From assembly GCF_004010195.1 (NCBI RefSeq), contig NC_057718.1:95769147-95833146 (forward strand): a stretch of DNA of 64,000 nt. Direction: 5' to 3'. The stretch is from Chiloscyllium plagiosum. Taxonomy: Eukaryota. The translations under genes were made by a program, and so were the position numbers. The notes below the pieces were generated by a model. The model was not told the DNA's origin. It ran no database searches and was given only the letters and a program-made list of their open reading frames with translations. Positions 897 through 61,192 of this stretch are shown piece by piece; within the stretch, counting starts at the first letter, position 1, and each line of letters starts with the position of its first letter.

Positions 897-1110
897 ATAA
901 AACCTGAAAAAACTGCGGATGCTGTAAATCAGAAACAAAAACAGAAGTTGCTGTAAAAGCTCAGCAGGTCTGGCAGCATCTGTGAAGAAAATCAGAGTTA
1001 TCATTTCAGGTTGAGTGACCCTCAGAGTAGTCCTGAGGAAGGGTTACTCGACCCGAAACGTTAACTCTGATTTCTCCCCACAAATGCTTTTCCAGCAATT
1101 TCTGCTTTTA
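897..1110. mobile_element. PLE pseudo-LTR foldback element (family A) with hammerhead-like core at 1033-1062 (+)
   Basis: Inverted arms; ctgaggaagggttactcgacccgaaacgtt; degenerate flanking duplication ctacagcgtacaga (883-896) / ctacaatatacaga (1111-1124). Confidence 0.75.
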
Positions 1111-1368
1111 CTACAATATACAGATGTAAGTTATACTCCAACATTGCAGAATTAAACTGAGGAAAAGATGGGTTACAGACAAGCTGGTCAAACATCCTAC
1201 TGTACATTTAAGATAACAAATGCCATCATGACAGACCCCATGGATTTCTCAAGAAGCCCACTCTGCATCCATATTATAAAAAGGTGCAGAGATAGTAGAG
1301 AGGCTGTCAAGAGGACTTGCACAGTAATGAGAAGGAAAGGAGTGACATACCAAATCTGTTTTCTCTAT

Positions 1369-1694
1369 GGGCAGCACAGTGGCTCAGTGGTGAGTACTGC
1401 TACCTCACAGCGCCAGGGTCCCAGGTTCGCTTCCCGCCTTGGGCGACTGTGTGGAGTTTGCACATTCTCCTCATGTCTGTGTGGGTTTCCTCTCGGTGCT
1501 CTGGTTTCCTCCCACAATCCAAAAATGTGCAGGTCAGGTGAATTGGCCATGCTAAATTGCCCATAGTGTTAGGTATGTTAGTCAGGGGTAAATATAGGAT
1601 AGGGGAATGGGTCTGGGTGGGGTACTCTTTTGAGGGTCAATGTGGACTTATTGGGCTGAGGGCCTGTTTCCACACCGTAAGGAATCTAATCTAA
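1369..1694 (+). mobile_element. HE1-like tRNA-derived SINE
   Basis: A box tggctcagtgg, B box ggttcgcttcc, central ggtttcctcccaca core, CR1-like tail gggcctgtttccacac ending in aatct repeats. Confidence 0.9.
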
Positions 1695-1796
1695 TACTGT
1701 GGGTCATTTAATCTCATTAAAACCTTAAAAAGGATTCACCTTTTTGAATAGCCAGGTTTGGAGCTCCTTGAAAAACCTGTGTCAAGACTGCTCATA

Positions 1797-2690
1797 GTAC
1801 GACACTAAAGTCAGTGGAGTAGTGGACAGTTTGGAAGAATGTTACAGGTTGCTGGGAACTTGGATCAACTGCAAAATTGGGCTGAGAGGTGGCAAATGGA
1901 GTTCAATGTAGCTAAATGTGAGGTGATGCACTTTGGGAAGAATAACAGGAAGGCAGAGTACTGGGTCAATGGAAAGATTCTTGGTAGTGTGGATGTGCGG
2001 AGGGATCTTGGAGTCCATGTACATAGACCCCTGAAAGTTGCCACCCAGGTTGATAGTGCTGTTAGGAAGGCATACGGTGTGTTAGGTTTCATTGGAAGAG
2101 GGATTGAGTTCCGAAGCCACAATATCATGCTGCAACTATACAAAATGGTAGTGCGGCCACATTTGGAATATTGTGTACAGTCCTGGTCTCCATATTTCCG
2201 GAAGGCTGTGGAAGCATTGGAAAAAGTACAGAGAAGATTTACCAGGATGTGGCCTGGTCTGGAGGGAAGGTCTTATGAGGAAAGGCTGAGTGACTTGAAC
2301 CTGTTCTCATTGGCAAGAAGAAGGCTAAGAGGGGATTTGATAGAGACATACAAGTTGACCAGAGGATTAGGTAGGGTAGACAGTGAAAGTCTTTTTCCTA
2401 TTATGATGATGTCAGCGTGTATGAGGGGCATAACTACAAATTGAAGGGTGATAGATTTAAGACAGATGTCAGAGCCAGGTTCTTTACTCAGAGAGTGGTA
2501 AGGGCATGGAATGCCCTACCTGCTAATGTAGTCAACTCAGCCACATTAGGGAGATTTAAACAATCCTTAGATAAGCACATGGGAGGATAATGGGATAGTG
2601 TAGGGGGAACGAGCTGAGAATAGTTCACAGGTCGGCACAACATCGAGGGCCGAAGGGCCTGTTCTGCGCTGTATTGTTCTATGTTCTAGG
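1797..2690 (+). mobile_element. CR1 LINE 3' fragment (tgttcta-tailed subfamily)
   Basis: ORF 1839..2444: WQMEFNVAKCEVMHFG, RDLGVHV, VRPHLEYCVQSWSP, RRRLRGDLIETYK; tail tattgttctatgttcta. Confidence 0.93.
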
Positions 2691-3071
2691 TTCTACGGTA
2701 GTTCTTTTTCTTTTCTTGTGTCTATGATCCTCTGCAGCCCAACCCTTACACATAGCTCCAGTATTTCACAGTCAGTTGGCTAAATCACTGCAGAACTGCC
2801 ACTGGGCAGACTTCTTGAGCTGTAATTTTGCTCATCTGTACAAACTGATACAGCTTATGGGCTTTGCCACATCCCTACTGTCAGCTGTACTGAAGTATCA
2901 ATAGCTTGTAGTTTTCACATCTCACGACTTCTCAGACTTTCCTGCACCTTCACTCCAACACTGAACTCCATTTCCTGGCTTCTCGGATTTCGCCTGGGTC
3001 CTAACTGCACAGAGCAACCCCTGAATCTCTCCCTGAACACCAAATATACAGTAGGCTTCCCAGCAACAAAG

Positions 3072-3388
3072 CTGTTGGGGAAGTCCAGAACTAGGGATGG
3101 TAGTCTAAGAATAAGGGATAAGCCATTCCGGACTGAGATGAGGAAGAATTTCTTCACTCGGAAAGTTGTGAGCTTGTGGAATTCTGTCCTATAGGAAGCT
3201 GCTTGGGTCAATTCATTAGATATATTCAAGAAGCTCGATGTAGCCCTTATGGCTAAAGGGATCGGAGTATGGGGAGAGGACGGGAATGGGGTATTGAGAT
3301 TGCGTGATCAGCCATGACCATATTGAATGGTAGTGTGTTCTCAAAGGGCCGAATGGCCTATTCCTGCACCTATTTTCTAAGTTTCTAT
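3072..3388 (+). mobile_element. CR1 LINE 3' end
   Basis: actgagatgaggaagaatttcttcactcggaaagttgtgagcttgtggaattc (TEMRKNFFTRKVVSLWNS) plus 3' UTR gggccgaatggcctattcctg. Confidence 0.82.
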
Positions 3389-12902: not shown

Positions 12903-13217
12903 AAAGGGGTCTTTGTTGAAATCAAGTTCATCTTTTTTTCTCCAGAGGGCTTTGTTTCCTGGGGCATAGTATTAAAGATAAGTCACTTGAATGAACACCC
13001 AAGTTGTCTTATTAGGTTGGCTGGGACTTTGCTATGAGAGACTGTGCAGTGATAGGATCAGAACTAAAGGCTGTTTCATTGGCTAATTTAGACTGAAACT
13101 GGTCATCAGAGTTTTGGGATGCTTTCCTCGCATTTTCTCTAAGTTGCATTCGTCCATATCTTGAAGAAAGCTAAACAAAGTAAAACCTTTCCAAACATTA
13201 ACCACAAGTACGTAACT

Positions 13218-13605
13218 GATACAAAAACGGAAATTGCTGGAGAAACTCAACATGTCTGGCAGCATTGGTGGAGAGAGAATCAGGGAATCCATTGATGCTG
13301 TACATATCTATTCTTCTGAAGAGTTAACTCTGTTTCTCTTCACATATTTGAGAGTGTGGTGCTGGAAAAGTACAGCAGGTCAGGTAGCATCCGAGGAGCA
13401 GGAGAATTGACGTTTCAGGCAAAAGCCTTTTATTCCGGATGTTGCCTGACCTGCTGTGCTTTTCCAGCACCACACTCTCGACTCTGATCTCCAGCATCTG
13501 CAGCCCTCACTTTCTCCTAGTTGATTCTTTCCACATATGCTGAGATTCTCCGGGAATTTCAGTTTTTGATTCAAATCTTCGGCATCCACAGTTCTATGTT
13601 TTATT
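13218..13605. mobile_element. Family A PLE foldback with nested family B PLE foldback (13348-13524)
   Basis: Inner inverted arms gagagtgtggtgctggaaaag / cttttccagcaccacactctc; flanking duplication cacatat (13341-13347, 13532-13538). Confidence 0.75.
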
Positions 13606-14799: not shown

Positions 14800-15256
14800 G
14801 ACTTATTAAGTTAAAATGAGTGAATGAATGAGCTGGAGATATCAGTTCAAAACCCGCTGTCGTTGGGAAATTTAACTTTAGTTAATTGAATAAAGATCGG
14901 GAAATATTAAAAGAAGCTAATGTCAGTAACAGTGACCATGAACCTAATGAATTGTTGTAAAAATCCATCTCCTTCACTAATGTCTTTCAGAGAAAGACAT
15001 TTGTTGTCCTTAAGGAGAAGCTGGAGATCAGAGCTGAAAATGTGTTGCTGGAAAAGCGCAGCAGGTCAGGCAGCATCCAAGGAGCAGGAGAATCGACGTT
15101 TCGGGCATAAGCCCTGTCCTTACCCAGTCTATCACTCCAATCCAAGTCACTCAGTTATGTTGTGAAGGCAACTCACCACTGCCTCCTCCAATGCAATTAG
15201 AGCTGGACAGTAAATGCTGGCCTTGACTATGTCACTGGAACCACTTGAATAAAAAC
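14800..15256 (+). mobile_element. Old SINE whose 3' tail matches the 7903-type LINE, interrupted by a PLE pLTR (15013-15114)
   Basis: agttcaaaaccc B-box remnant; tail gcaattag..taaatgctggcc; insert flanked by tgtcctta (15005-15012, 15115-15122). Confidence 0.6.
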
Positions 15257-16369
15257 AAATTGCCTTATTTCCTAATCTTTGATGGGGAGTTGCACAATGG
15301 AGTTTGGCTCATGCCCATGTTGTTGGATTGGAAACATGTGTTAATTATCTGGGGCAATGCATTCGGTTACGGATTGGTAGCCAGAGGATTCCTTTAACCC
15401 TCATACAACAGGGTTCTGATTTCCACTCTGTGACTAAGGGAGGCGGCAAAACAAAGGAAAAGCAAGAAAACGAAGCAAGGGAAACACTTCCTTTGCACTG
15501 TTCCAGGACACTTCACAGCAGGTGGTCACAGAGTGGCAGTGACCTCTCAGTGCCTTGGGACAAAGTATGAAGAGAAAAAAATCCAAACATGCACAAATGA
15601 TTATCATTCTGTCCAAATGGCGGTTTCAGTATAGCTTCACAGTCCAGTTCACAAAGAATGTAGGGAAAATAAATGAAAATATTTGACCTTTGGACAGCCT
15701 TGAAACCTCAGCTGTTGGATCTGATTCCGACAGGCAAAACAATGAGATGTAAGTGGCTGTCTGTACAGTGATCAGTGCGGAAATAAAAAAGCAACAGGAT
15801 CACATCCAACTTTCTGATACTTGACCAGAGTTCTATCAATCTTCTGTCAAATCGAAGGAACTCTCATGGAGATCATGCCCTGGGACGTTTGTTGACACTT
15901 GTTTAGCACCACAGAGCATGCAAATCGATCATTAGAATGGTGAAACACTTGTCTGAACGTTCCGATAAAAATAACATCCTGCAGATGCCGGAAATCTGAA
16001 ACAAACACCGAGTCATGCTGCAGGAAAGTGGATGTGAGGAATGTCGGATCGGGCACAATCCTATTGAACGGTGGAGCAACATCGAGAGGCTGGATGATCT
16101 ACACTTGTTCCTATTTCATGTGGTCTTACTGGACTTGAAATATGAACTCTGTCATCTCTCTCCATGTATGTTGTCAGATCCGCTGAGTTTCACCAGTACT
16201 CTGTGTTTATTTCAGAACACGAACGTTTCCTGATTCTGGAGCAGAGCTGGACAAAGTAGAATAATAAACAATTGTTGGGTGCTTCTGGCGACTTTTCAAC
16301 TGCATCGTCAATTGGTAACGTTATTGCCTCTGAGCCACAAGGTTCATGTTCCAGCCTTGAAGGCCATGA

Positions 16370-16530
16370 ATAAAACAAAGAACTGTCAGTCCAAACCAAA
16401 ATCAGAAATAGCTGGGCAGACTCAGCAGGTCTGGCACCGTCTGTGGAGAGAAGACAGAGTCAATGTTTCGGGTCCAAAGGCCCTTTTTCAATTCTTGGGA
16501 CCTGCTAAGGTCCAGCAATTTGTGTTTTCG
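16370..16530. mobile_element. Degenerate family A PLE pLTR
   Basis: ctcagcaggtctggca..ctgtggagagaagacagagtcaatgtttcgggtc, similar to 897-1110. Confidence 0.6.
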
Positions 16531-18940: not shown

Positions 18941-19104
18941 CTGCATATTCCTGATAACCTTTAATCCCTTTAGTAATCTTTAGACAAAAACAGAAAGTGC
19001 TGGAGAAGCGCAACAAGTTCAGCAGCATCAATGGAGACAAAAACAGAGCTAACATTTCACACCCTCTGACTCATCCTTAGTGATACAATGGACAGATGTG
19101 ACGT

Positions 19105-20170: not shown

Positions 20171-20308
20171 TTACATATCACTTGCCTTCATGACTCATTG
20201 TTGGAGTCCTATTAATAAGATTTCCACCTCATCTAGCCACAACCGTTGTTTATTCATTCTATCCATGAACATTTTCTTTGGCTTTTGCACCAAACAATAT
20301 TTGTTAGA

Positions 20309-20439
20309 ATAAAACAAAAAACCATGGGCACTGGAGATCTGAAACAAAAACAGCAATTGCTGGCAAGACTTAGCAGGTCTGGAGGCATCTGTGGGAAGAG
20401 ATCAGAGTTAATGTTTCAAGTCTCGTAACTCTTCATCAG
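20309..20439 (-). mobile_element. Family A PLE pLTR with hammerhead-like core
   Basis: Minus strand gttctgatgaagagttacgagacttgaaacattaac; flanks aacaatatttgttaga (20293-20308) / aacaatgtttgttaga (20440-20455). Confidence 0.75.
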
Positions 20440-20747
20440 AACAATGTTTGTTAGATGATATCTCTTGCTGTCTGCTCTATCAAGAACCTTCTGTTGGTTC
20501 ATCCTGGCTCCTGAACTATCTTAAAGACTCTTAGGTTTCTATCCCTCATCAGTTCTGATGAAAGTTCATTGATCTAAAACTTGGTTCCTGGTCATAGATG
20601 TGCGGAATATTTCGAGCAAATCTCTTTGCTTTTATTTCAGTTTTCCAGCCACCACAGTACTTCACTTCCATGCTAACATTAAATTTATTTTATAAATGCT
20701 GATTATCTAGTTATTGTTAAATTGCAGTTTGTGGGGTTTACCAACCC

Positions 20748-21464
20748 ACCTTCCACTCCTGGCACCTTCCCTTGCCGCCGCAAGAGATGTAAAACCTGCA
20801 CCCACACCCCCCCCCACACCCCCCCCCCCCCCCACCCCACCTACGTCCAAGGCCCCACAGAATCATTTCACATCCAGCAGAGATTGTCCTGCACATCATC
20901 TACTGTGTCCATTGCTCTCGATGTGGTCTCCTGTACATTGGGAGACAGGATACTAACTCGCGGAATGTTTCAGGGAATATCTCTGGGACACACGCAACAA
21001 CAAACCCCACTGCCCTGTGGCCAACCACTTCAACTCCCCCTCCCACTCTGCCAAGGACATACAGGTCCTGGGCCTTCTTCACCACCAAATCCTTGCCACC
21101 CGACGCCTGGAGGAAGACCGCCTTCGGACCCTCCAACCCAATGGCATCAACGTCAACTTCACCAGTTTCCTCATTTCCCCTCACCCTATCTTATCCCAGA
21201 TCCAACCCTCCAACCCGGCACTGCCCTGTTAACTTGTCCTATCTGTCCATCTTCCTTCCCACCTATTCACTGCGCCGTCATCTCTGAGCTATCCATTTGC
21301 ACCTATCTTCCGAGTTACCTTCCTCCACAACCCTCTTACTTATCTCTCAGCCCACTTCCCTCCCTCATATTCCTGATGAAGGGCTTATGCCCGAAACGTC
21401 GACTCTCCTGCTCCTTGGATGCTGCCTGATCGGCTGCTCTTTTCCAGCACCACACTTTTCGACT
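20748..21464 (+). mobile_element. Penelope-like (Neptune-type) element 3' end: Cys linker, GIY-YIG endonuclease, pLTR with hammerhead
   Basis: PGTFPCRRKRCKTC; CSRCGLLYIG; VANHFNSPSHSAKDIQVLGL; TLQPNGIN; ctgatgaagggcttatgcccgaaacgtc at 21373-21400. Confidence 0.88.
21373..21400 (+). ncRNA. Minimal type I hammerhead ribozyme motif (PLE-type)
   Basis: CUGAUGA-A-GGGC(UUAU)GCCC-GAA-ACGU-C; canonical core with predicted GUC cleavage triplet. Confidence 0.75.
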
Positions 21465-21590
21465 GTGTACATTGGTAGCCATGTTTCCAACGTTACAACA
21501 GTGGCTAAATTTCAAAAGTGCTTTGTGGGCCACAAAGTGCTTTAAAATCTCCAGTGCTTGTGAGAAATGTGACATAACTACATGTTTTCC
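21465..21590 (+). mobile_element. DeuSINE/L2-type 3' tail; upstream part at ~20697-20747
   Basis: ttggtagccatgtttccaacgttacaacagtggctaaatttcaaaagtgc continues gattatctagttattgttaaattgcagtttgtggg across the PLE. Confidence 0.55.
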
Positions 21591-24299: not shown

Positions 24300-26050
24300 C
24301 AGAAGTAAAGGCACTTGATTTGAATACATCTTGCATTCACAAAATGTCTATGATTTGTTTAAACAAATTGAGGTGAATGGGTTTTATTTGACTGTCATTT
24401 AGGAGACACAGTAAAGGGTGACCAGTATTGGAAACTGGATGTGCAAGGATGTTCAACATTTAGAGAGGATTTGCAAAGTGGCAAGGAAGGTGAGGGAGCA
24501 TCCTCAATATGGGGTGGGAATGGTGCATTGCTGGAAGGTGAGGGAACATCCTCGATGAGGGGTGGGAATGGTGCATTGCTGGAAGGTGAGGGAGCATCCT
24601 CGATAAGGGGTGGGAATGGTGCATTGCTGGAAGGTGAGGGAGCATCCTCGATGAGGGGTGGGAATGGTGCATTGCTGGAAGGTGAGGGAGCATCCTCGAT
24701 GAGGGGTGGGAATGGTGCATTGCTGGAAGGTGAGGGAGCATCCTCAATATGGAGTGGGTATGGTGCATTGCTGGAAGGTGAGGGAGCATCCTCGATGAGG
24801 GGTGGGAATGGTGCATTGCTGGAAGGTGAGGGAACATCCTCGATGAGGGGTGGGAATGGTGCATTGCTGGAAGGTGAGGGAACATCCTCGATGAGGGGTG
24901 GGAATGGTGCATTGCTGGAAGGTGAGGGAACATCCTCGATGAGGGGTGGGAATGGTGCATTGCTGGAAGGTGAGGGAACATCCTCGATGAGGGGTGGGAA
25001 TGGTGCATTGCTGGAAGGTGAGGGAACATCCTCGATGAGGGGTGGGAATGGTGCATTGCTGGAAGGTGAGGGAACATCCTCGATGAGGGGTGGGAATGGT
25101 GCATTGCTGGAAGGTGAGGGAACATCCTCGATGAGGGGTGGGAATGGTGCATTGCTGGAAGGTGAGGGAACATCCTCGATGAGGGGTGGGAATGGTGCAT
25201 TGCTGGAAGGTGAGGGAACATCCTCGATGAGGGGTGGGAATGGTGCATTGCTGGAAGGTGAGGGAACATCCTCGATGAGGGGTGGGAATGGTGCATTGCT
25301 GGAAGGTGAGGGAACATCCTCGATGAGGGGTGGGAATGGTGCATTGCTGGAAGGTGAGGGAACATCCTCGATGAGGGGTGGGAATGGTGCATTGCTGGAA
25401 GGTGAGGGAACATCCTCGATGAGGGGTGGGAATGGTGCATTGCTGGAAGGTGAGGGAACATCCTCGATGAGGGGTGGGAATGGTGCATTGCTGGAAGGTG
25501 AGGGAGCATCCTCAATATGGGGTGGGTATGGTGCATTGCTGGAAGGTGAGGGAGCATCCTCGATAAGGGGTGGGAATGGTGCATTGCTGGAAGGTGAGGG
25601 AGCATCCTCGATGAGGGGTGGGAATGGTCTATCGCTGACAATGTGCAACTGAATGATCATGATGTAGAGAATCAGTTCAGGTAGAGATAAGGGACATTGA
25701 GGAACCTTAAACAAGGTTGAAGTTGTTTATAGGTCACCAAACAGTAGTGGTAATATTATACATAATTTTAATCAAGAAATTAGTTCTGAATGTATTATGG
25801 GCAATATGGTAATAATGGGCAACTGCAAGTAACTCAGAGACTAGATTAACCAAATCAAAACAAATGATGTAGAGGATGAATCCCTGGAATGTGTATGAGA
25901 TGGATTTCTGGAGCAGTAAGTTAAGAAGCCAACTAGGGATTGGGCTCTTTTGGATTTAGTGTTATGTAATGAGAGAGGGCTAATTGATAATTATGCTCTA
26001 AAGGAGCCTTTGTGAAATAGTGACAATAATTTATTAGAATCTTTTACTAA
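24300..26050 (+). mobile_element. Decayed CR1 ORF2 APE endonuclease region hosting a minisatellite
   Basis: GDQYWKLDVQGCSTFREDLQSGKEG before the array; after it VVYRSPNSS, VIMGN, DGFLEQ*VKKPTRDWALLDLVLCNE, SDNN. Confidence 0.8.
24486..25628 (+). repeat. 48-bp minisatellite, ~23.8 copies
   Basis: Unit gaaggtgagggaacatcctcgatgaggggtgggaatggtgcattgctg; copies 8-21 appear identical. Confidence 0.98.
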
Positions 26051-26362: not shown

Positions 26363-27420
26363 AGTCCTGGTGGAGAACGAAAACAAAAGTTGCTGGAGAA
26401 ACTCAGCAGATCTAGCAGCATCTACAGTCAGAGAAAAACAGAGTTAATCTTTCAAGACTAGTGATCCATCTTCCGAAGCCCTGGTGTGGGACTCAAAGCC
26501 AGAGCTTCCGATCGAGAGGAAGGACGCTACCACTGTGCAGCAACACCTCTGGCATGCTACTCACATTTTATGATAATGCAAGTTTAACATTTGAAACTAA
26601 TCTCAGCACAGAAAGTCCTCAACAATTAAAAACAACTTTGTCACCATCTCACCCTAACTGCAATATTATCACACTGACAAACGATGCTGCGATAATTCTA
26701 TCACTGGCTTTTAATAGTGTGGCCTTAGTTTCTATAAAAAGGCGTGTGAAATTATAAGTGACCACCATGATGATGGTAGGATTGAATAGAATCAAAAGAC
26801 ATCAAAGTTATAATAATCTGATTGAAATAACATTCAAAGAACCTTGTGAAGATTAAAGCTTAAAATTAGATTGTGTTTTAGGATATGAAGATTTGATGCA
26901 TTTATAAAACATTCCTCTGCTTTTTAGTTGAACAGAGATATTGTCCTATTAAATAAGCCAGTGGCTCAGTTAAATGTTGGATGAAAAAATGTACAAACCT
27001 CCCACAACTCCAACCTTGAACCTCCCCAGTCAGGTCGCTTCCACAGCACTGAATTGACCCTAATTAAGCTCCTAAGTAACACTCACTATAAATGTAATCA
27101 TTCTGTGTGATCTATTCCCGTCTTTCTTGACCTCTGTGCAATCTTTGACCTACTCCCCACCATTGTCCTTTATTTTATTCCATTCTTACCTAAATGACTT
27201 TCGACTGGACATTTCCAACAATGGCTTCTCTTGCGCCCATGCCATTACTTCTGAGACCCTCAAGGATCGATCATTGCCACTAACCCACCCCTACTTTAAC
27301 AACATGCCCATTTCAGTGCCATCTTCTCAAAGCATTTGACTGGTTCCTATAGGCTTACTGATGGCACCCTGATCTATCTGTTCAACATGTGTACTGACCC
27401 CTTCACTATCTCCTTATTTT

Positions 27421-27614
27421 GAAAGTTAAAAATCGCACAACACCAGGTTATAGTCCATCAGGTTTAATTGGAAGTACTAGCTTTCAGAGTGCCGCTCCTA
27501 CAACCACCTGATGAAGGAGCGCCGCTCCGAAAGCTAGTGTGCTTCCAATTAAACCTATTGGACTATAACCTGGTGTTGTGTGATTTTTAACTTTGTACAC
27601 CCCAGTCCAAATCA
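27421..27614. mobile_element. Family C PLE foldback with hammerhead core at 27508-27536 (+)
   Basis: Arms aaagttaaaaatc...acaccaggttatagtcca / tggactataacctggtgt...tttttaacttt; ctgatgaaggagcgccgctccgaaagcta; flanks tccttatttt (27411-27420, 27615-27624). Confidence 0.82.
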
Positions 27615-27633
27615 TCCTTATTTTCAAACTTTG

Positions 27634-28190
27634 TCATAGAGTCATAGAGATGTACAGCATGGAAACAGACCCTTCGGTCCAACCTGTCCATGCCTCTCAC
27701 CCTAAAACTATGCCCTCTAGTTCTAGACTCCCTGACCCCAGGGAAAAGACTTTGTCTATTTATCCTATCTATGCCCCTCATAATTTTGTAAACCTCTAGA
27801 AGGTCACCCCTCAGTTTCCGACACTCCAGGGAAAACAGCCCCAGCCTGTTCAGCCTCTCCCTGTAACTCAGATTCTCCAACCCTGGCAGCATCCATGTAA
27901 ATTTTTTCTGAACCCTTTCAAGTTTCACAACATCTTTCCGATAGGAAGGAGACCAGAATTGCACACAATATTCCAACAGCGGGCTAACCAATGTCCTGTA
28001 CAGCCGCAACATGACCTCCCAACACCTGTACTCAATATTCTGACCAATAAAGGAAAGCATACCAAATGCCTTCTTCACTATCCTATTTACCTGCGACTCC
28101 ACTTTCAAGGGGCTATGAACCTGCATTCCAAGGTCTCTTTGTTCAGCAACACTCCCTAGGACCTTACCATTAAGTGTATAAGTCCTGCTA
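27634..28190 (-). mobile_element. CR1 (HER1-like) 3' fragment with internal deletion
   Basis: ORF 27587..28126 has [10 protein letters not shown] and LRGDLLEVYK, joined directly to the tail. Confidence 0.9.
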
Positions 28191-28740
28191 AGTGTCTGAC
28201 ATCCAGTCTTCTCTGTGTCATGCTTTTCGGCAGGTAAACATTGGTAAGATCAAAGCCACTGATGGTAATTTAAACTCAAAAAGACAGATGTGTTTGGGTC
28301 AAGTGGGATGCTAAAATGTGAAAGTTTCAAACCCAACTATAATTTGCCTGATATAGAAACATTTTTTACCTTAATTGAGGTAGTGTGGAAGCTGAGACAA
28401 GGATAATGGAAGGAAACAAATCTACTCCCAGGAGATGATTGGGTCATTTACACTTATTGAAGCTGTCTGATAGTTGTAATATCTTCCAAGTTTGAGCCTG
28501 ACCATGTTGGCTTCCCAGGTCTTGGGAAACTAGGCATTTGATAAGAGATAGTGACTGTCTTTTCAGAAAACAAACACACCCTTTTAGCATGGCTTGTGGT
28601 GCAAGAGTAACAGGATTTTTGGATTGCATTTAACAGCTATTTTAAAATCCATCAAATGGGACTGGGAACACATCATCCTCAATCTTGAGGAAATGCCTAA
28701 GCAGAAGAGGGGAAAAAGAAGATGACATCAGTAGATGTGG

Positions 28741-28928
28741 TCAGAAGTCACGTGACACCAGGTTATAGTCCAACAGGTTTATTTGAAATCACAAGCTTTC
28801 GGAGTGCTGCACCTGACAATGGAGCAACACTCCAAAAACCTGTGATTTCAAATGAACCTGTTGGACTATACCCTGGTGTCACGTGACTTCTGACTTTGTC
28901 CACCCCAGTCCAACACTGGCACCTTCAC
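28741..28928. mobile_element. Family C-related PLE foldback
   Basis: tcagaagtcacgtgacacca / ggtgtcacgtgacttctga inverted arms plus unpaired tail gtccaccccagtccaacactggcacc. Confidence 0.78.
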
Positions 28929-30137
28929 ACTGTCTATGGACATAAAGACAAGAAAGTTTAAGGCAGAGAAAAGAGAGATTAGCAAGTTAATGGTACAACA
29001 GGACTCAGTTCTCAGTTTTTTTTTAGGTTTTGTTGTACAGGGCAGGAGAGATGTTTCAAAAATACCACAGATCAACACAGGATTCAAATCTTGTGGACAC
29101 TGGGCTTTATAAAGAGTTGAAATCCTTCTGGGGAAATAAAGCATTCAACATAAGATAGGGAACTGACCTCCTATTGCTTTTGCAACTCAGCAGATGTGGG
29201 AGCTTCAACCATGTCGAAGAGATAGTCAAATAAAAGCGATGAACAGAGAGCATCTGTTGAGAATGATGGAGCATCAGAAATGAGAGATGGCAACTTTTGG
29301 TTAAACAAAAGTGATGTGAAGAAACTGTATTCATTTTTATTGTCTCAAAGAAAAGAGAAATCAAACTAAAATGCTGAACTCCAGAGAACTCAAGACATTG
29401 AGAACCGAGTGCTGGTGATCTGAACAAAAGATTAGATCTTCAGAAAAGGAAGATACAATTTGATGATCAATGGGAAATGTTGTCAGCACAAGGAACAAAA
29501 CAAAACATTTTTGAATCAACGAGTTAACATAAAAAAGAGTTAGAGGATGAGTTACCAAATCTTTGTGGGTTTAAGAGTAAAACTGACCCTTGTGCATTGT
29601 TCTGGTAGGTACTCATATGATGTTAATTAATTTGAAGTATGCTCTATTATTAGCATTGGATCCCACTGTGAGTTCTGCTCGGAAGGAACATTGCAATCTA
29701 CTATGCGTTTCTGCTCTCGAGTAAAGAAATGTGTTCCCTTGCAGTATCAATGTGACTTTAAGCTTCTGTTCCAAGGCATGAATGTATGTCTTCATTATGG
29801 AGAAGATTTGATTGGTAGTTCAGTGTGTTCTACAGAAAATAGCAATCAATAAGTGACTTATTTCTCTACAATGAGCAAATTATTGGTGGAAGATTGACAG
29901 CTTTGTCCTTGCTGATACGGGATTTTGGAACCATGCTTGTGACATCCTTACGGAACCATCCTTATTACCGAGCTTATAATTTCCTGTTGATATTGTCACA
30001 TTTCAAATATTGCTCACATGAGACGTCTGGTCTTATTGTGCTGTAAGTGGCCAATTTACTCTTTTGACACTTGGAAAAGTTTATCAGTTTACTTCCAGTT
30101 TCCACCCTGCTCTCAATTGCACTATTTCTGGGTCCAC

Positions 30138-30715
30138 CCTTCCCTTCCTTGACGTTTCTGTTTCCATTTCTGGGGATAGACTGGCCACTAATACCTACCG
30201 TCAACGAACCGACTCCCACGGTTACCTGGACTATACATACTGACAGGTGGAAGTGGATACTGCAGATGCTGGAGAACAGAGTCAAGATTAGAGTGGTGCT
30301 GGAAAAGCACAGCAGGTCAAGCAGCATCCGAGGAGCAGGAAAAATCGACGTTTCAGGCAAAAGCAAGTTATTGGTACAACAGGACTCAGTTCTCAGTTTT
30401 TTTCTTTTTCTTAGGTTTTGTTCCACAGTGCAGGAGAGATGTTTCAAAAATACCACAGATCGACACAGGATTCAAATCTTGATGACATTGGGCTTTATAT
30501 AGAGTTGAAATCGTTCTGGAGAAAAAAAGTATTCGGCTCAAGAAATGTGCCTGAAACGTCGATTTTTCCTGCTCCTCGGATGCTGCCTGACCTGTTGTGC
30601 TTTTCCAGCACCACTCCCATCTATACATCCTGATATTCCACCTTGTGGAGAGACTTCACTCCATTCTCCCAATTTCTCCATCTCCACTGCATCTGATCCG
30701 ATGATGCTGGCTTCT
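30138..30715 (+). mobile_element. PLE RT fragment split by a family B foldback insert (30244-30620)
   Basis: PFLDVSVSISGDRLATNTYRQRTDSHGYLDYT before the insert; thumb-like ccattctcccaatttctccatctccactgcatctg after; flanks ctatacatactga / ctatacatcctga. Confidence 0.8.
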
Positions 30716-31107: not shown

Positions 31108-31702
31108 GGGCCTCTGAAATGTCCACCTTTTTCCTCAACCAGGGATTCTCCACCACTGTGGCTAACATGGTCCTCAGCTGGGTCTGACCCATCTCCTGTG
31201 TTTCAGCCCTCACCCCTTCTCTTCCCTTCTATAACAGCAATAGGATTGCCCTCATCCTCACTTACCAACCCACCAGCATCCACATCCAAAAGACCATTAG
31301 CTGCCATTTCTGTTACCTCTAGCAGGTGCCACCCCCAGACACACATTCCCACATATTCCTTTCCCCTCACTCGTCAGCCTTCACCAGGGACCATTCCCTC
31401 TGGGATATCCTGGTTCACTCCTCCTCCACTCCCAACCCACAGCACCTTCCCATGTAACCACAGAAGGTGTAACACTTGACCATTTACCTCCTCCCTCCTC
31501 ACTATCCAAGGGCCCAAAACACCTTCCAGGTGAAGCAGCACTTCACTCAATCTCATCTACTGCATTCGCTGCTCACAATGTGGTCTCCACTACACTGGGG
31601 AAACAAAATGCAAACTGGATAAATGCTTTGCAGAACACTTGCATACTTTCTGCAAAAATGACCCTGTTACCAGTCACTTCAACACACTGCCGTATTCCCT
31701 GG
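31108..31702 (+). mobile_element. Penelope-like (Neptune-type) fragment, linker and GIY-YIG region
   Basis: STFPCNHRRCNT; atctactgcattcgctgctcacaatgtggtctccactacactggggaaaca (IYCIRCSQCGLHYTGET). Confidence 0.82.
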
Positions 31703-39110: not shown

Positions 39111-39338
39111 GTGAGGAGAAAGAAAGGATATTGGAGACCAGAGTCTAAAAGTGTGGCGCTGGAAAAGCACAGCAGGTCGGGCAGCATCCGAGGAGCAGGA
39201 GAATCGATGTTTCGGGCATAAGATCTTCATCAGGAATGTCACCTTCCCAACGAAGGACTTATGCTTGAAATGTCGATTCTCCTGCTCCTCGGATGTTGCC
39301 CGACCTGCTGTGCTTTTCCAGCACCACACTTTTAGATT
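39111..39338. mobile_element. Family B PLE foldback
   Basis: Inverted arms; minus-strand ctgatgaagatcttatgcccgaaacatc; flanks ctgcagctac (39101-39110) / ctgcagcgac (39339-39348). Confidence 0.8.
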
Positions 39339-39644
39339 CTGCAGCGACAGACATGAGGTTGTTTTAAGAGAAGTTACTTGGGGAGTTTGAAGTCAACTGG
39401 TCTGTGCCATCTTCTACGCAACTGGCTTTCTCGTAGCTCAATGTGCATACAAATGGAACCTGCGTGTCCAAGCTGTGTGCATGTAAACCTATCCGTCAAC
39501 CGATGGAGATGCTGGGATCGGTTTGGAAGACTGATTTGAGTGTTCAGTCTGTGAAGTGAGAAACAGTGCAACATCCAAAATGCCCCATTCTCCCTTGGGA
39601 AGTTTGGCTAAAATTGGGGTTTTGTTTGAATCAGTAAAAATTGA

Positions 39645-45034: not shown

Positions 45035-46262
45035 CTTTGAAGTTTGCATCACATACAGACAGGGTGGTTAAAAAGGTATTTAGCACACTAAATACAAGTC
45101 ACATTGTATAAGACTCTGGTGCGGCCGCATCTGGAGTATTGTGTGCAGTTTTGGTCGCCATACTATAGGAAGGATGTGGAGGCACTGGAACGGGTGCAGA
45201 GGAGGTTTACCAGGATGTTGCCTGATATGGTAGGAAGATCGTATGAGGAAATGCTGAGGCAGTTGGGGCTGTTTTCATCGGAGAAAAGAAGGTTTAGGGG
45301 TGACTTGACAGAGGTGTACAAGATGATTAGGGGTTTAGATAGGGTTGACCATGAGAACCTTTTTCCACGTATGGAGTCAGCTATTACGAGGGGGCATAGC
45401 TTTAAATTAAGGGGTGGTAGGTATAGGACAGATGTTAGGGGTAGATTCTTTACTCAGCGAGTCGTGAGTTCATGGAATGCCCTGCCAGTAGCAGTGGTGG
45501 ACTCTCCCTCTTTATGGGCATTTAAACGGGCATTGGATAGGCATATGGAGGATAGTGGGCTAGTGAGGGTTAGGCGGGCTTGGATCGGCGCAACATCGAG
45601 GGCCAAAGGGCCTGTACTGCGCTGTATTCTTCTATGTTCTATGTTCATTGCTTAGTCTTTCGAGTATAGGAGTTGGCAAGTCATGTTGAGGTTGTACAGG
45701 ACATTAGTGAGGCCTCTTCTGGAATACTGTGTCCAGTTCTGATCATCCTGTTATAGGAAGGATACTATTAAGCTGGAGAGGGTTCAGAAGAGATTTACCA
45801 GGATGTTGCTGGATATGGAAGGTTTGAGTTGGAAAAAAAGGCTGGGTGGGCTGGGACTTTTTCACTGGAGCATAAGAGGTTAAAGGTGACCTTATAGAAG
45901 TTTATACAATAATGAGGGATATAGATAGAGTTAACGGTAGCTGTCATTTCCTTAAGATGGGGATTTCAAGACGAGGGTGGACACATTTTTAAGATGGGAG
46001 GAGGGAGAGTTTAAAAAAGACATGAGGGCAATGTTTTATACAGAGGGCAGTTAGCATGAAGAAAGAACTTCCTGAGAAAGTGATGGATATGAGTACAATT
46101 ACAAGATTTAAAAGACATTTGGGTATGTACATGAATAGGAAACGTTTGGACGAATATGAGCCAGGAGCAGGCAGGTGGGACTCGTTTAGTTTGTGATTGT
46201 GTTTGGCATGGACAAGTTGGACTGAAGGGTTTGTTTCCATGCTGTATGGTTGTATGACTCTC
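45035..46262 (+). mobile_element. Older CR1 3' fragment hosting a nested CR1
   Basis: agggtggttaaaaaggtatttagcacac resumes at ttcattgcttagtctttcgagtatagg (~45644); tail gttgtatgactct. Confidence 0.82.
45100..45643 (+). mobile_element. Young CR1 3' fragment, nested
   Basis: Open ORF 45104..45655 with [18 protein letters not shown]...FFTQRVVSSWNALP; tatgttc tail. Confidence 0.93.
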
Positions 46263-47411: not shown

Positions 47412-48749
47412 TGTTATGATCCCAGCTGCTGTTATCTCTGGACAAGTCAGAGCTCATCATGAAATCTGGCTTGATAGATCATAGTTTCAATACAATGTGG
47501 CAGATTTGGTTTTAACAATAAAACAAAAGAAATGTAGATAAAATATGAAAAAAAAGCCCAAGCTATTTACACATGACACAATTTTAAAGATTTATGTACA
47601 ATCAGTAAAATACAATCCATTATTCCCAAAAACACTCCTCTACAGCACTCTCACCAGAAAGCATTTTCTTCACTCGCACATCTCTGCAGCTTGATTGATT
47701 TGTGGCTTCCAAAATCCATTTTGAAAATCTGGCAGAATCTTCTTTGAGTTTCCCAACAACTAAGCATACACCTTCTCAGCATCAAAAAGCTCCTTTAGAA
47801 CTTTAGACAAGCACTTCTGGTCTGGAACTTTCAAACCAAACTACTTATACTGAGATAACCTATTTCTCAATAGTTCTAAACTACATCTTTTTGTCAGGAG
47901 TAAGTGTGTTACTCCATCCAGCTTCAGCCAAGATGTCTGCAAAATTGAAACCCAAAAGCATTTTTCCAAGTTACAGGTGTTTTCTCCTATTCAAAGGTGG
48001 ACGGGGAGAGAATCAATCAATGGGGCAGCATGGTGGGTCAGTGGTTAGCACTGCAGAGGTAAAAACAATGACTGCAGATGCTGGAAACCAGATTCTGGAT
48101 CAGTGGTGCTGGAAGAGCACAGCAGTTCAGACAGCATCCAACGAGCAGCGAAATCGATGTTTCGGGCAAAAGCCCTTCATCAGAAATAAAGGCAGTGAGC
48201 TTGAAGCGTGGAGAGATAAGCTAGGCAGCCTCAATAGCATTAGGAACCCGAGTTCGATTCCAGCCTCAGGCAACTGTCTGTGTGGAGTTTGCATATTCGC
48301 CCTGTGTCTGTGTGGGTTTCCTCCCACAGTCCAAAGATGTGCAGGTTAGGGTGGATTGACCATGTTAAATTGCCTATAGTGTTCAGAGATATGTTGGTTG
48401 GGTACATTAGTCAGAGGTGAATGTAGAATAATGGGTTTGGTTGGGATACTCTTTGGAGGGTAGGTTTGGGCTGAAGGGCCTGTTTCCACACTGTAGGGAT
48501 TATAATTTTTTAAAGCTGAATGCACAACTGTTTACGTTCTTCGTTTATAAAAAACTCTCCCAATGAAACGAAAACCCTGTCGCACACCAGGAACTCGTTC
48601 AAACTGTTTTTAAAAGAAGGCATGTGGGTATTAAAATGCAACAAGTTAATCATTAAACCCCTTCAGAAACAGAAATCAAAACCCTCATGCCACTTGCTCA
48701 AATCCAAGATCTAAAATAAATTGTATTAAAATATATACAAAGCATCACA
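47412..48749. mobile_element. Possible old solo LTR interrupted by a SINE
   Basis: Begins tgttatga, ends gcatcaca; flanking gtatg-like sequence is offset by 1 nt. Confidence 0.35.
48022..48503 (+). mobile_element. HE1-like SINE with PLE pLTR inserted in the tRNA head (48057-48224)
   Basis: ttagcactgcag|insert|gcagcctc; insert has minus-strand ctgatgaagggcttttgcccgaaacatc at 48156-48183. Confidence 0.85.
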
Positions 48750-49092: not shown

Positions 49093-49274
49093 TATATGTT
49101 AGTGGTATCCAATATTTATGGGTAACAAATCTTTTCCTAGGAAGAGAAAACACTGAGAAGAAGTATTTTCATGATTTTAGTTTGCATCTCCATTATTTAT
49201 TATATGATATTTAACATAACTTTACGAGATTGAAGATAAGGTTATACATCAATACTCAATATATGTCTCTACAT

Positions 49275-49748
49275 ATGATTTGGAGGTGCCAGTGTTGGAC
49301 TGGGGTGTACAAAGTTAAAAATCACACAACACCAGGTTATAGTCCAACAGGTTTAATTGGAAGCACTAGCTTTCGGAGCGCCGCTCCTTCATCAGGTGGT
49401 TGTGGAGTACACAGTTGTAAGGCACAGAATTTATAGCAAAAGTTTACAGTGTGATATAACTGAAATTATATATTGAAAAGGACCTTGATTGCTTGTTAAG
49501 TCTTTCATCTTTTAGAATAACCATGTTGGTTCCAGTTCTTCCATATGTAAATCACAAAACTTTTTAAAAAAAGGTTAACTTTTCAATATATAATTTCAGT
49601 TACATCACACTGTAAACTTTTGCTATAAATTCTGTGTCTTACAACTGTGTCCTCCACACCCACCTGATGAAGGAGCGGCGCTCAGAAAGCTAGTGCTTCC
49701 AATTAAACCTGTTGGACTATAACCTGGTGTTGTGGGATTTTTAACTTT
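49275..49748. mobile_element. Family C PLE foldback: ~170-bp inverted arms, hammerhead motif on each strand
   Basis: Arms 49311-49480 and 49579-49748; cores at 49367-49395 (-) and 49664-49692 (+); unpaired ~36-nt tail 49275-49310. Confidence 0.88.
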
Positions 49749-50038
49749 CTCCCCATGAAGTTCAGTTGATCTTCAGAATATGTATTGATGTAAAAATACC
49801 AAGGGGCAAACTGTTCAGCATCTGACGAAGAAGTTGAATAATATAGCTAATATATTTTTTGCTTATAAAATCTAGGAATAATGTATTATATTGGTGATCC
49901 ACTAGGATAGTTTAGCAAGAAGGCATGAGTTAGATATTGAAAGCATTAAGCAATTTTTTTGCATTGTAAACTCACAATAACTTTGTTCAACTATGGTTTA
50001 GAGCATAGCCTTCTTCTGATTGAAGGCTATATCTATGG

Positions 50039-53832: not shown

Positions 53833-53864
53833 AATTGAACTAATGTCCAGATCGTCTTGTGTGT

Positions 53865-55301: not shown

Positions 55302-55500
55302 CACAAGCTGGAGGCTGGAAGAACACAGTGAGCCAAGCAGCATCTGGAGATAGAGAAGCCGACATTTCGGGTGTAACGCTTCTTCAGGACTCCACCGAAA
55401 CGTCGGCTTCTCCACTTCCTGATGTTGCCTGGCTCACTGTGTTCTTCCAGCCTCCTGCATGTCTGCCTTAGATTCCAGCATCTGCAGTGTTTTTGTCTCG
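55302..55500. mobile_element. PLE foldback (further variant) with hammerhead-like core
   Basis: Arms gaggctggaagaacacagtgagcca / tggctcactgtgttcttccagcctc; minus-strand ctgaagaagcgttacacccgaaatgtc; flanks agtcaaa (55295-55301, 55501-55507). Confidence 0.8.
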
Positions 55501-55998: not shown

Positions 55999-56860
55999 GA
56001 AAAGGTGGGGACTACAGGTGGTCCAAGGAGTAGGAGCGTGGCCATTTTGAGCATAAGCCCTTCATCAGGAATGTGGGGAGGGCCCAAGGAGGTTGAGAGA
56101 TAGATGGGAGGGGGCTGGGGCTGGGGGGAAGGTAGCTAGGAATGCGATAGGTGGAGGAAGGTGGGGGTGTGATGCTGATAGATCAGAGTGGAGGGTGGAG
56201 TGGATCGGTGGGAAAGAAGATAGACAGGTAGGACAGTTCAAGAGTGCGATAGAAAGATGTCTGTTGCTCTCAATGTGGTCTCCTCTACATTGGGGAGACA
56301 GGACACCAACTTAAGGAACGTTTCAGAGAACATCTCTGGGACACATGCACCAAATAGCCTCATTACACGGTGTCCGAATACTTTTAGTCCTCCTCCCACT
56401 CCACCAAGGACGTGCAAGTCCTGAGCCTCCACCACCGCCAAATCCAAGCTACCCAACGCCTGGAGGAAGAACGCCTCATCTTCCACTTTGGGACCCTCCA
56501 ACCACACGGATCAATGTGGATTTCACCAGTTTCCTCATCTCTCCTTCCACCACCTTATCCCATATCCAACCTTCCAACTCGGCACCACCCTCTTAAATTG
56601 TCCTACCTGTCCATCATCCTTCCCACCCATCCACTCCCTTCTCCCCTATGACCTATCACCATCATGCCCCTCTTTCATCTACCTATCGCATTCGTAGCTA
56701 CCTTTCTCCCAGCCCCACCCCTCTCATATTTATCTCTCAGCCCCCTTTGGTGGCCCCTCCACATTCATGATGAAGAGCTGATGCTTAAAACATCAACTCT
56801 CCTGCTCCTAGGATACTGCCTGACTGGCTGTGATTAACCAGCGCCACACTTTTTGACCTA
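55999..56860 (+). mobile_element. Penelope-like 3' end (GIY-YIG) with upstream inverted pLTR
   Basis: CSQCGLLYIGETGHQLKERFREHLWD and RLEEERLIFHFGTLQPHG; 56045-56245 is inverted to 56590-56790; flanks ggctaataaag (55988-55998, 56861-56871). Confidence 0.88.
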
Positions 56861-58789: not shown

Positions 58790-59262
58790 TAGAGTCATAG
58801 AGTCTTAGAGATGTACAGCACGGACACAGACCCTTCAATCCAACTCATCCATGACGACCAAATATCCTAAACCTATATAGGTGGCACAGTGGTTAGCATT
58901 GCTGCCTCACAGCACCAGAGACCCAGGTTCAATTCCTGCCTCAGGCAACTGTCTGTGTGGAGTTTGCACATTCTCCCCGTGTCTGCATGGGTTTCCTCCG
59001 CAGTCCAAAAATGTGCAGGTTAGGTGAATTGGCCTTGCTAAATTGCCCGTAGTGTTAGGTGAAGGGGTAAATGTAGGGGTACGGGTCTGGGTGGGTTGCG
59101 CTTTGGCGGGTCAGTGTGGACTTGCTTGGCCGAAGGGCCTGTTTCCACACTGTAAGTAATCTAATCTATCTAGTCCCATTTGCCAGCACTTGGCCCATAC
59201 ATGCCTCTAAACTCTTCCTATTCATATACCCATCCAGATGCCTTTTAAATGTAGCAATTGTA
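58790..59262 (-). mobile_element. CR1 tail interrupted by an HE1-like SINE
   Basis: Tail 58790-58875 resumes at 59167 (tctagtcccatttgccagc). Confidence 0.82.
58880..59166 (+). mobile_element. HE1-like SINE
   Basis: Head, core and taatc tail present. Confidence 0.9.
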
Positions 59263-59529
59263 TTTTTAAAATAGATCACTGCTAATTTTAATTCTTGGGT
59301 GATGGGATGGCAGAAAAAGAATTTTCTGCAAAGAGGGGTGGCCATTTCGTGGCAGAAAACTGTATTAAGCAAGGCCAGCAAAAGTAAGAATTAGAATTCG
59401 ATTTTATTGTTGCATGTACTCAAGTACAGAGGTACAGGAGTGCATTGAAACGTGTACAAAGTTCCAATTTGGACTGGGTGCAGAAGAGTGTCAGAAGAGG
59501 ATGAATAACTTGCCCTCTTTAACAAAGGG

Positions 59530-59655
59530 TCAGTTAGACTCGAAACATCAGCTCTTTTCTCTCCTTACAGAAGTTGCCATACCTGCTGAGATTTTCCAGC
59601 ATTTTCTCTTTTGGTTTCAGATTCCAGCATCCGCAGTAATTTGCTTTTTTTTTGC
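59530..59655 (+). mobile_element. Degenerate family A pLTR
   Basis: gactcgaaacatcagctc...ttccagcat..tttcagattccagcatccgcagta. Confidence 0.6.
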
Positions 59656-59834
59656 CCACTGTCTTGGTGTCAACATGGTATTGGTGAGGGAATTCCTGGA
59701 CGATTTCAAGAATTCCATCATTCGGGCACTGTGTGGACTTCATTTGAACTGTTGTCAGCTGAAAGCAGCTGTAAGTGCTACCAAAACTCTAGGAGACATC
59801 TCAGTGCCTCATTAAGGAATGGAAGCCCAGAGAT

Positions 59835-60015
59835 CATCAAGTTTTTGTGCTCCTTCAAAGGATGTGGGTCTCAGTGGCTGGGCCAGCACTCATTACTCAC
59901 TGCCAAATTGCCTCTGAGAAGCTTGTGGTGAGCTGTCTTCCTGAGCTGCTGCAGTCCATCTGGTGCAGGTATATCACAATGCCGTCAGGAAGGGAGTTGT
60001 AGCTTTTTGATCCAA
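59835..60015 (-). mobile_element. 3' end of the 7903-type LINE family
   Basis: gatgtggg..ggctgggccagca..gtggtgagctgtcttcctgagctgctgcagtccat. Confidence 0.6.
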
Positions 60016-61056
60016 TGAGATGAAAAGGGGCCATTAAGTTTCTGAGGTGATCCCTCCTGTGTCTTTCTTAAGTTCTTTGGAACTTTTGAATGCCAGTGGC
60101 CCACCTAGAATATTTGAATGAGCCTTTCCCAGCATTTGAGTTGGCGATTGGGTACCAGAGAGGGATGCTGCTCAATTTTAATGTGCTGATACTTCTGAAC
60201 ATAGGTATACAGACACAGAGAGAACGACTTGCCGCATGAACCTGCTCCCCTCTATGAAGACCTTTTAATTCTAATATTAGAAGTGGCTCCTAAATCAATT
60301 GCACCATTCATGAGGCACTTCTTATTTAAGATCTGGCCAATGTAAGACACTTAACTGATTTTTGAAATGGGCAGTTAGTGAAGGGTAATAATTCTAGTAT
60401 TGCTTCTATGCTACTGACCAGAAATGAATGAAAAATGTCGAACTATCTTGCTTTCAAAGGTGAAGGAGCTAACTGATAATCATTGAGTAGATTCACAAAT
60501 GGGGTGTTGATTTTACTGTAGCTGATGGGGTCTCACTCCAGCCTGAAGACTTGAGAAAGCCCTGTGCAGCTATTTTTGCTTAGATCAAGGGCCCTTGGGG
60601 GTGTCCACCCTGCTGAGGGCTGCCAAAGAATGGGTGACTAGTCACTCATCATGGCTCGGCGGCACCACCAGGGGTCAGTGGCTGCAGCCGGTATTGCACT
60701 CACTCAAGGCCAATGAACACCAAGATTCCCAGGCCGAAGTGACCATGGGAAGGGGGTTGCAGAGTGGGATTTGTGGTGGAAGTGGGAACATTGGCAGCAA
60801 GGGCAAAGGAGTTTGTTCTCAGTGGCCATCCCCTTGCTGATGCTGGGTCCCTCAGCAAAGCAGTGAAAGCCTGACAATGTGATACCCTCTTCTGGAAGCC
60901 TACAAGCAATGCCAACACTTTGCTTTATAGGCTGTCAAGTTGTGTGTCCCTTACCAGCCATTATTGAAATACCATGAGGATGAAAACCGTTAATGGGCAT
61001 TGATTGCTCCTGAATAGCCTTCCCCACCACTGACTTAACTGGGACAAAGATATCAT

Positions 61057-61192
61057 CAGGTCATTCCTGATGTAAGGCGTTTGCCCAAAACATCAATTTT
61101 CCTGCTCCTCAGATGCTGCATGATCTGCTGTGCTTTTCCAGCACCACTTGAATCTTGACTCTAATCTCCACCATCTGCAGTACCCACTTCGG
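61057..61192 (+). mobile_element. Family B pLTR, degenerate hammerhead
   Basis: cattcctgatgtaaggcgtttgcccaaaacatc; flanks caaagatatcat (61045-61056) / caaagatgtcat (61193-61204). Confidence 0.75.

Follow-up and report, generated by a model that had tools for sequence, protein, structure and literature searches.

Hammerhead-bearing stubs of Penelope-like elements in a shark genome and the likely start of the element RNA

Small hammerhead ribozymes recur along a 64,000-nucleotide stretch of the genome of the shark Chiloscyllium plagiosum (assembly GCF_004010195.1, contig NC_057718.1, positions 95,769,147 to 95,833,146 of the forward strand; hereafter the window), raising the question of what the short repeats that carry them are and whether the ribozyme had any part in making them. 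A first-pass annotation, drawn from the letters alone, had suggested non-autonomous retroelements mobilized by Neptune-type Penelope-like elements (PLEs). Comparing the window with a genome-wide sample, we find that the pieces in the window are very probably stubs of the pseudo-long terminal repeats (pLTRs) of PLEs. We propose, with moderate confidence, that the stubs are mostly decayed end-pieces of the pLTRs of several Neptune-type families, made by internal priming and run-off at the 5′ end of an uncut RNA, in the first bases of the ribozyme. Their ends likely mark where the element RNA starts, not where it cuts itself.

Hammerhead cores in the window and the genome

Positions within the elements are numbered from C3 of the hammerhead core, set to 0, which places the predicted cut at +28 to +30. 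A loose descriptor (CUGANGA, an optional extra base, a helix II of at least 3 bp, and GAAA) matches the window 7 times, compared with a mean of 0.73 and a maximum of 3 in 100 dinucleotide shuffles; a strict descriptor, adding A-N-N′-U-H and a helix I of at least 2 bp, matches 3 times and never in the shuffles (mean 0.0, maximum 0). The nine cores listed in the first-pass annotation are all present at their positions, and its description of the helix II pairs, the ACGU/AGCU remnant of helix III and the CAC/GUG and GUU/AAC pairs of helix I holds. Three of the nine are strict (21373, 27508 and 49395), three are loose only (1033, with a broken helix I; 20439 and 48183, in which ACAU replaces the palindrome) and three fail the descriptor through decay (39233 and 55387, with a broken helix II; 49664, which has lost C11.1). 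The seventh loose match, at 11880, looks like chance. Nine was nevertheless too low a count: mapping places 31 PLE fragments (4,676 bp) in the window, and 28 of these include the 3′ part of a pLTR. An Rfam scan of the window returned no hammerhead family at E ≤ 10, only chance matches to microRNA hairpins.

For the genome we sampled 80 evenly spaced 10-kb stretches from the 21 largest contigs (774,426 non-N bases; loci from this sample carry L-numbers). They hold 46 strict motifs, or 59 per Mb, with none in shuffles of the first 40 stretches. The window, which had been called dense, has 48 strict motifs per Mb and 449 pLTR fragments per Mb, against 353 in the sample; it is typical of the genome, and its motif density is not special. 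Extrapolation (59 per Mb × 3.56 Gb) gives about 2 × 10^5 strict motifs in total. A search of the genome DNA with the family A pLTR found no matches, but it skipped very common words and is therefore uninformative on rarity.

The copies fall into families A to D, with a subfamily C′ of C. Their core has CUGANGA, GAAA and UH, with helix II closed by G10.1–C11.1; an extra base follows A9 in all 46 strict matches of the sample. The loop of helix III is absent, and positions 15.2–16.2 are palindromic, ACGU in the subfamily majorities of B, C, C′ and D and AGCU in A. Covariation was counted in 19 hand-picked copies of B, C, C′ and D, whose relatedness was not controlled; family A was left out because MAFFT had placed it one column out of register. 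Paired stem cells amount to 90.5%, compared with 82.0% after shuffling and at most 43.7% in alignments slid out of register, and the stems contain 25 two-sided changes against 9.0 (0 of 500 shuffles reach either value), confirming that the stems covary between families. Counting instead the pairs that show any two-sided change gives 6 against 4.5, which is not significant (96 of 500 shuffles). Two of the changes are inherited: a G–C to A–U swap in helix II within a subfamily of B (5 copies), and replacement of the core pair C3–G8 by U3–A8 in C′ (7 clustered copies), whose exact 18-letter core has 2,894 matches in the genome and none for the reversed control. The palindrome is paired in 14 of the 19 copies, and the remainder look like CpG decay. 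Monomers are predicted to fold weakly (−8 to −11 kcal/mol), and minimum-energy cofolding, which cannot model the core, did not recover the active dimer in any of five copies. Cleavage of PLE hammerheads as dimers is reportedly the subject of a 2017 paper, and other papers use the phrase 'cleave RNA as dimers'.

The stubs belong to protein-coding elements

Families A, B and C reach upstream into DNA coding for a GIY-YIG endonuclease, and A and B also have a reverse transcriptase (RT). In family B, two window copies carry endonuclease remnants (Table 1). RT and endonuclease precede the core at L130, and a decayed full-length element at L076:3181-6962 comprises a 5′ pLTR, RT, linker, endonuclease, 3′ pLTR and an inverted 5′ segment. 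A CX4CxxC linker is present at L051 and L076, and the cysteines of the CCHH motif at L051. A CX2-5CxxC linker and a CCHH endonuclease mark Neptune and Nematis (Craig et al. 2021, bioRxiv 10.1101/2021.04.23.441226). Family B shows this set, with a C-terminal GIY-YIG domain, CCHH and the linker; the linker was not seen in A, C or D. The closest named relatives of the family B RT are shark and ray proteins (89% for the best), and a first look across the genome with family B yielded 108,158 candidates, 150 of them scored.

For family A, coding DNA was found at two of the eight loci fetched: an endonuclease C-terminus at L136 (32% to B, E 3e-9) and an inverted RT at L131 (40% to the B RT). Family C has an endonuclease C-terminus at L104, and the link of C′ is weak, a 13-residue remnant across a gap (E 0.13). 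Because Pfam gave weak or no matches to the decayed RT and endonuclease pieces, the assignment is based on motifs, pairwise comparison and homologues.

Copy lengths form a continuum from stubs up to the full-length element at L076. As A, B and C run into coding DNA, we take them to be the ends, in the pLTR, of Neptune-type PLEs that encode proteins, and not non-coding families in their own right. The association of minimal type I hammerheads in pLTRs with Neptune-type elements is therefore supported by the RT and GIY-YIG sequence upstream of them. Dedicated non-autonomous families are not supported as the principal explanation: the same pLTRs extend into endonuclease coding DNA, lengths are continuous and junctions vary, and in none of A, B, C and C′ do the copies behave as a fixed unit, copied whole and separate from a coding parent.

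Several observations stand beside these. The full-length family B element at L076 directly adjoins a family A copy. A sub-lineage of family B has a 22-residue segment around the YIG motif tripled in frame at L051:3684-4380 (−) and L126:3607-4299 (+); its presence at two separate loci means that the triplicated form was itself copied. Ray and skate proteins named as host enzymes (P0007, P0018 and P0021) hold pieces of PLE RT, probably as inclusions in gene models. Outside the window there is a fifth hammerhead family, E (L045, L048, L065, L070, L078 and L105), whose helix II is longer; from its C-terminal motif we take it to be Poseidon-like.

The 5′ ends cluster at the edge of the ribozyme

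Fragments were mapped with natural reference copies, their BLAST ends being imprecise by a few bases. Of 273 sampled fragments, 13 were set aside for N or a locus edge, leaving 260 uncensored, and 201 of these reach +10. The first-pass annotation had posed shared ends against random truncation, and each is seen in part: 152 of the 201 end within the 30-nt zone from −20 to +10 (A, 34 of 46; B, 80 of 108; C, 33 of 41; D, 5 of 6), there is no single fixed end, and the remainder decay at a low and even rate into the open reading frame. The end rate is 4.2% per nt in the zone, compared with 0.34–0.86 downstream and 0.38–0.60 upstream. In tight hairpins, where the junction is seen directly, 75 of 81 arms end in the zone; the mode in family C is −4 to −2. 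A check for missing upstream references found junction-near upstream sequence shared by 6 of 75 solo stubs, in short matches.

These ends bear on the possibility that the ribozyme cuts the template and that the copies, as in retrozymes, are reverse transcripts of cleavage products or circles. Such a role would suit a core under selection across families, processing has been proposed (PMC4209133), and a few B ends (6 of 129) do fall at +28 to +31. Around the cut site (+25 to +36), though, the rate is 0.69% per nt, no higher than background, and most copies retain the whole core upstream of that site. Among 36 copies that continue past the tail (of 40 listed, assessed by eye), 15 start in −20 to +10, 11 at +22 or at +36 and beyond, and none at +25 to +31. 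Of the fragments starting at or above +10, only 8 have their end before +50; two lie no more than 4 nt from the cut site, one of this pair at a locus edge. For the inserted copies, cleavage of the template is largely refuted and we regard it as highly improbable.

Anatomy of the hairpin insertions

About 40% of the sampled fragments (114 of 273) lie in 57 head-to-head pairs, most of them units of only 170–250 nt with junctions clustered at the 5′ edge of the ribozyme. Defining a tailed arm by a 3′ end at +105 or beyond, 49 of the 57 pairs have one tailed and one untailed arm. The most frequent 3′ end of tailed arms is +126 for family B and +122 to +124 for family A, while untailed arms mostly end at +80 to +95, giving two preferred 3′ ends about 40 nt apart. 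A flanking duplication score of at least 9 was reached by 36 of 65 hairpins (57 sampled and 8 in the window), against 0.4 in shuffled flank pairings, and by 14 of 159 solo copies. Since duplications flank whole hairpins so far above the shuffled level, each hairpin is one insertion. The two arms share a subfamily, as loop II is identical in 9 of 9 comparisons (22% expected) and the partner arm lies within the top tenth in 32 of 58. A simple fold-back of the complementary DNA (cDNA) was considered as the origin of the hairpins and rejected, as the untailed arm reaches further upstream in 12 pairs (the tailed arm in 11, with 32 ambiguous).

The anatomy also bears on a reading akin to short interspersed nuclear elements (SINEs), in which short master RNAs beginning at the ribozyme are mobilized by Neptune proteins. 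Coding DNA is missing from most copies and their start zone is shared, no coding link turned up for family D in the sampled loci, non-autonomous PLE derivatives are known (Chlamys; retrozymes), and an internal promoter, as in Drosophila virilis (PMC2377424), would allow stubs to be transcribed again. Set against this, the main short subfamilies also occur as long copies; hairpin junctions differ from copy to copy, so that with their centres varying between insertions the hairpins were not copied as units; the stubs lack an upstream TATA-like box; and the window has no tandem array of ribozyme units, with no same-strand pair within 300 nt and none of its 13 tandem-repeat rows overlapping a core. 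We consider the SINE-like reading improbable.

Separately, three head-to-head pairs (window 30245-30615, L056:7400-7787 and L035:1153-1523) have spacers of 160–360 nt unlike the PLE references. A target-site duplication encloses the whole of the window pair, and its spacer may be captured sequence.

A TATA-like box and the predicted RNA start

Long copies carry AT-rich box motifs at a fixed distance upstream of the end zone, chosen after inspection for A, B, C and D: TATAAA or CATAAA at −38/−40 in 8 of 10 copies of A, TTTATC at −35 to −37 in 16 of 27 of B, TATA variants at −33 to −36 in 3 of 4 of C, and TTTATC at −35 in the single long copy of D. Both arms of the family A inverted pair at 49259–49752 have TATAAA at −40. 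A TATA box typically lies about 31 nt before the transcription start, and from this spacing the box positions predict starts at −4 in B, C and D and at about −8 in A.

For C′, of which no upstream sequence had been mapped beforehand, the test was prospective. ATAWA stands at the predicted distance from 615 of the 2,894 exact cores (21%, including a few double counts and chance matches), and among those listed nearly all the ATAWA-bearing cores sit in one shared upstream sequence. Both C′ copies fetched have TATAAA at −35, with an A 31 nt further on, at −4.

An alternative source of the pile-up is stalling of the RT on a longer template, at a folded and possibly dimeric or protein-bound hammerhead. 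The ends do coincide with the outer edge of helix I, as the mode in C illustrates; roughly a quarter of the cDNAs (49 of 201) read through, as at a leaky stop; and the end zone is broad in B. An RT, however, meets the 3′ side of the fold first, and stalled ends would be expected near +30, not upstream of C3. Stalling also leaves the box 31 nt upstream unexplained, family E has a longer helix II yet no pile-up, and the predicted monomer folds are weak. We judge stalling unlikely, if less so than the SINE-like reading.

Model of stub formation

In the mechanism that we propose, transcription would start at the foot of helix I, about 31 nt past the TATA-like box, both promoter and start being predictions. 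The element RT would prime 90–130 nt inside the uncut RNA and run off its 5′ end. Both staggered nicks in the target would be primed, one at each of the two 3′ sites, and the two cDNAs joined head to head, flanked by the duplicated target. The long, randomly truncated copies would come from longer RNAs primed at their 3′ pLTR. Most stubs would be dead on arrival, and the ribozyme, presumably kept by selection in source elements, would not have cut the templates of these copies. Precedent comes from PAc, an Anolis Poseidon PLE (Frangieh et al. 2024, PMC11167929), whose protein cuts and extends both target strands, starts reverse transcription internally at two sites that bound the tail, as here, and takes uncut RNA as its main substrate in vitro; no RNA-seq ends lie at the cut site. 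We count these features as alike. PAc belongs to another clade and its open reading frame starts inside the ribozyme, and genomic 5′ ends and hairpin stubs are not addressed in the parts of that study considered here.

In its most specific form, for which we see about even chances, the proposal holds that hundreds of thousands of shark stubs are run-off cDNAs resembling retroviral strong-stop products, derived from a TATA-driven, uncut transcript that begins at the first base of helix I and is read twice, once from each nicked strand. It is a speculative and rather remote extension that the ACGU/AGCU palindrome pairs two template RNAs in the manner of a retroviral dimerization signal.

Several observations weigh against run-off from a TATA-driven start. 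The motif of B and D, TTTATC, departs from the canonical TATA box, and the predicted upstream shift of family A ends is weak (median −6 versus −2; p = 0.03 overall, p = 0.10 for solo copies). The pile-up in B, at about 30 nt, is broader than one start site. Of the 36 body-continuing copies, 10 extend above −20, so a second, read-through template is needed. One of the C′ ends counted, at L049, turned out to belong to a longer copy when an upstream reference became available, and the hazard for C is therefore somewhat inflated. Family E has TATAAA near −50 but only 3 of 17 ends in the zone, and a pile-up predicted near −19 was not seen, so the pattern is not general; nor does family D supply coding DNA in the sampled loci. 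Long inverted arms often lie at assembly gaps, which favours short pairs; gaps separate the arms at L123, L126, L127 and L128, and long hairpins are for this reason under-represented in the assembly. The Penelope promoter of D. virilis is internal and TATA-less, with transcripts starting inside the upstream pLTR (PMC2377424). Finally, raw single-cell poly(A) reads of a related organism (from one of two runs, the other placing none) reveal no place where many molecules begin or end, although such a library cannot show starts or cuts; in favour of the proposal, loose ends occur at +6, −3 and −7, where depth falls four- to five-fold (about 1,050 to 230), and the reads probably come from passively transcribed genomic copies.

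Relation to known elements

Descriptions of both the motif and the insertion pattern go back to 2013–2014, and the finding as stated is ordinary. As in the minimal hammerheads that Cervera and De la Pena (2014, PMC4209133) reported from metazoan PLEs, which are described as cleaving at a low level and only in dimers, the type I core has the extra base between A9 and G10.1, a G10.1–C11.1 pair, a palindromic 15.2–16.2 and a short helix I; several consensus families share one genome, and most motifs are single, from truncated PLEs, or in opposite-strand pairs. The U3–A8 variant has a counterpart there in Schistosoma, whereas here it occurs in a vertebrate subfamily of at least 2,894 copies. Helix II is 4–5 bp here and 7–8 bp in Schistosoma, and our extrapolated total, obtained with a different descriptor, is far above the 4,000 motifs given for coelacanth and 9,000 for Xenopus. 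Sharks are not named in the text of that paper considered here, although its supplement may list shark motifs.

Insertion units of endonuclease-bearing (EN+) PLEs (Arkhipova et al. 2013, PMC3846280; Craig et al. 2021) likewise have head-to-head pLTRs with a 30–40 nt tail on one arm, a target-site duplication round the whole unit, heavy 5′ truncation, and the Neptune/Nematis-type linker and CCHH endonuclease. The shark units differ in being mostly 170–250 nt long with junctions at the ribozyme 5′ edge, a clustering not found in the parts of those two papers that were covered. Non-LTR (long terminal repeat) retrozymes, reported in one chondrichthyan genome, also carry type I hammerheads and are related to pLTRs (see Cervera and De la Pena 2020; Li, Clavereau and Pollet 2026, bioRxiv 10.64898/2026.07.22.740005). 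They consist of two or more ribozyme units repeated in tandem, head to tail, unlike the dispersed single copies and head-to-head pairs of the window; because the window has no tandem ribozyme array, its copies are not retrozymes as Li et al. define them. A literature search that did not extend to Repbase and Dfam, to the bulk of subscription journals or to the supplements of PMC4209133 and the 2026 preprint, the latter of which may also list shark motifs, gave no paper describing the shark families or the clustering of 5′ ends.

Features of the window

Table 1 Penelope-like element copies in the window
Positions	Strand	Feature	Details
894–1109		Family C head-to-head hairpin	Tailed arm 894–1026 (−), untailed arm 1029–1109 (+); core at 1033
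13214–13283	−	Family C pLTR fragment	No core
13351–13518		Family B hairpin	Arm 13351–13433 (−), tailed arm 13436–13518 (+)
13538–13594	+	Family C pLTR fragment	No core
15016–15120	−	Family B solo stub	Start +3
16126–16216	+	Family C decayed stub	
16383–16491	−	Family C stub	Start 0; core decayed
18984–19080	−	Family C decayed stub	Start 0
20306–20442	−	Family C tailed stub	Start −3; core 20439
20740–21467	+	Family B 5′-truncated copy	GIY-YIG remnant 20945–21214 (tblastn 65% identity to family B endonuclease, E 1e-33), 3′ untranslated region, strict core 21373
26376–26477	−	Family C decayed stub	Start −2
27422–27610		Family A hairpin	Strict core 27508 (+); 13/14 target-site duplication
28738–28929		Older family A hairpin	Family A copy at 28813; tailed arm on +
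30245–30615		Family B head-to-head pair	180-nt spacer; 12/13 target-site duplication
31537–31637	+	Family B GIY-YIG coding fragment	Adjoins assembly gap; Pfam GIY-YIG E 0.04
39132–39341		Family B hairpin	Both arms start −6/−7; decayed core 39233 (−)
48070–48224	−	Family B copy	Start −41; core 48183
49259–49752		Family A inverted pair	Long arms, reaching about −171 and −85; cores at 49395 (−, strict) and 49664 (+, mutated)
55303–55494		Family D hairpin	Core 55387 (−); 11/12 target-site duplication
56022–56857		Family B inverted pair	Arms 56022–56244 (−) and 56258–56857 (+); GIY-YIG remnant 56283–56567 (tblastn 58% identity to family B endonuclease, E 3e-30)
59517–59637	+	Subfamily C′ stub	Core 59519; start −2; decayed U3–A8 variant
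61061–61189	+	Family B tailed stub	Start −6; decayed

Elsewhere, a tandem array of a 48-nt unit at 24485–25628 (23.8 copies, 97% matches) is open in several frames. The window also holds many RT fragments of long interspersed nuclear elements and short interspersed repeats (1809–2444, 27587–28249, 45092–45655 and repeat families D2–D7), unrelated to the pLTRs.

Implications

The transposition cycle of PLEs and the role of the ribozyme in it are still called undefined in the literature. What the shark genome adds is sample size: thousands of natural insertions provide predicted RNA starts, two priming sites and natural U3–A8 variants. If the run-off account is true, ribozyme motifs would litter such genomes without any separate class of mobile ribozymes, and it would argue that cleavage plays no part in making new copies.

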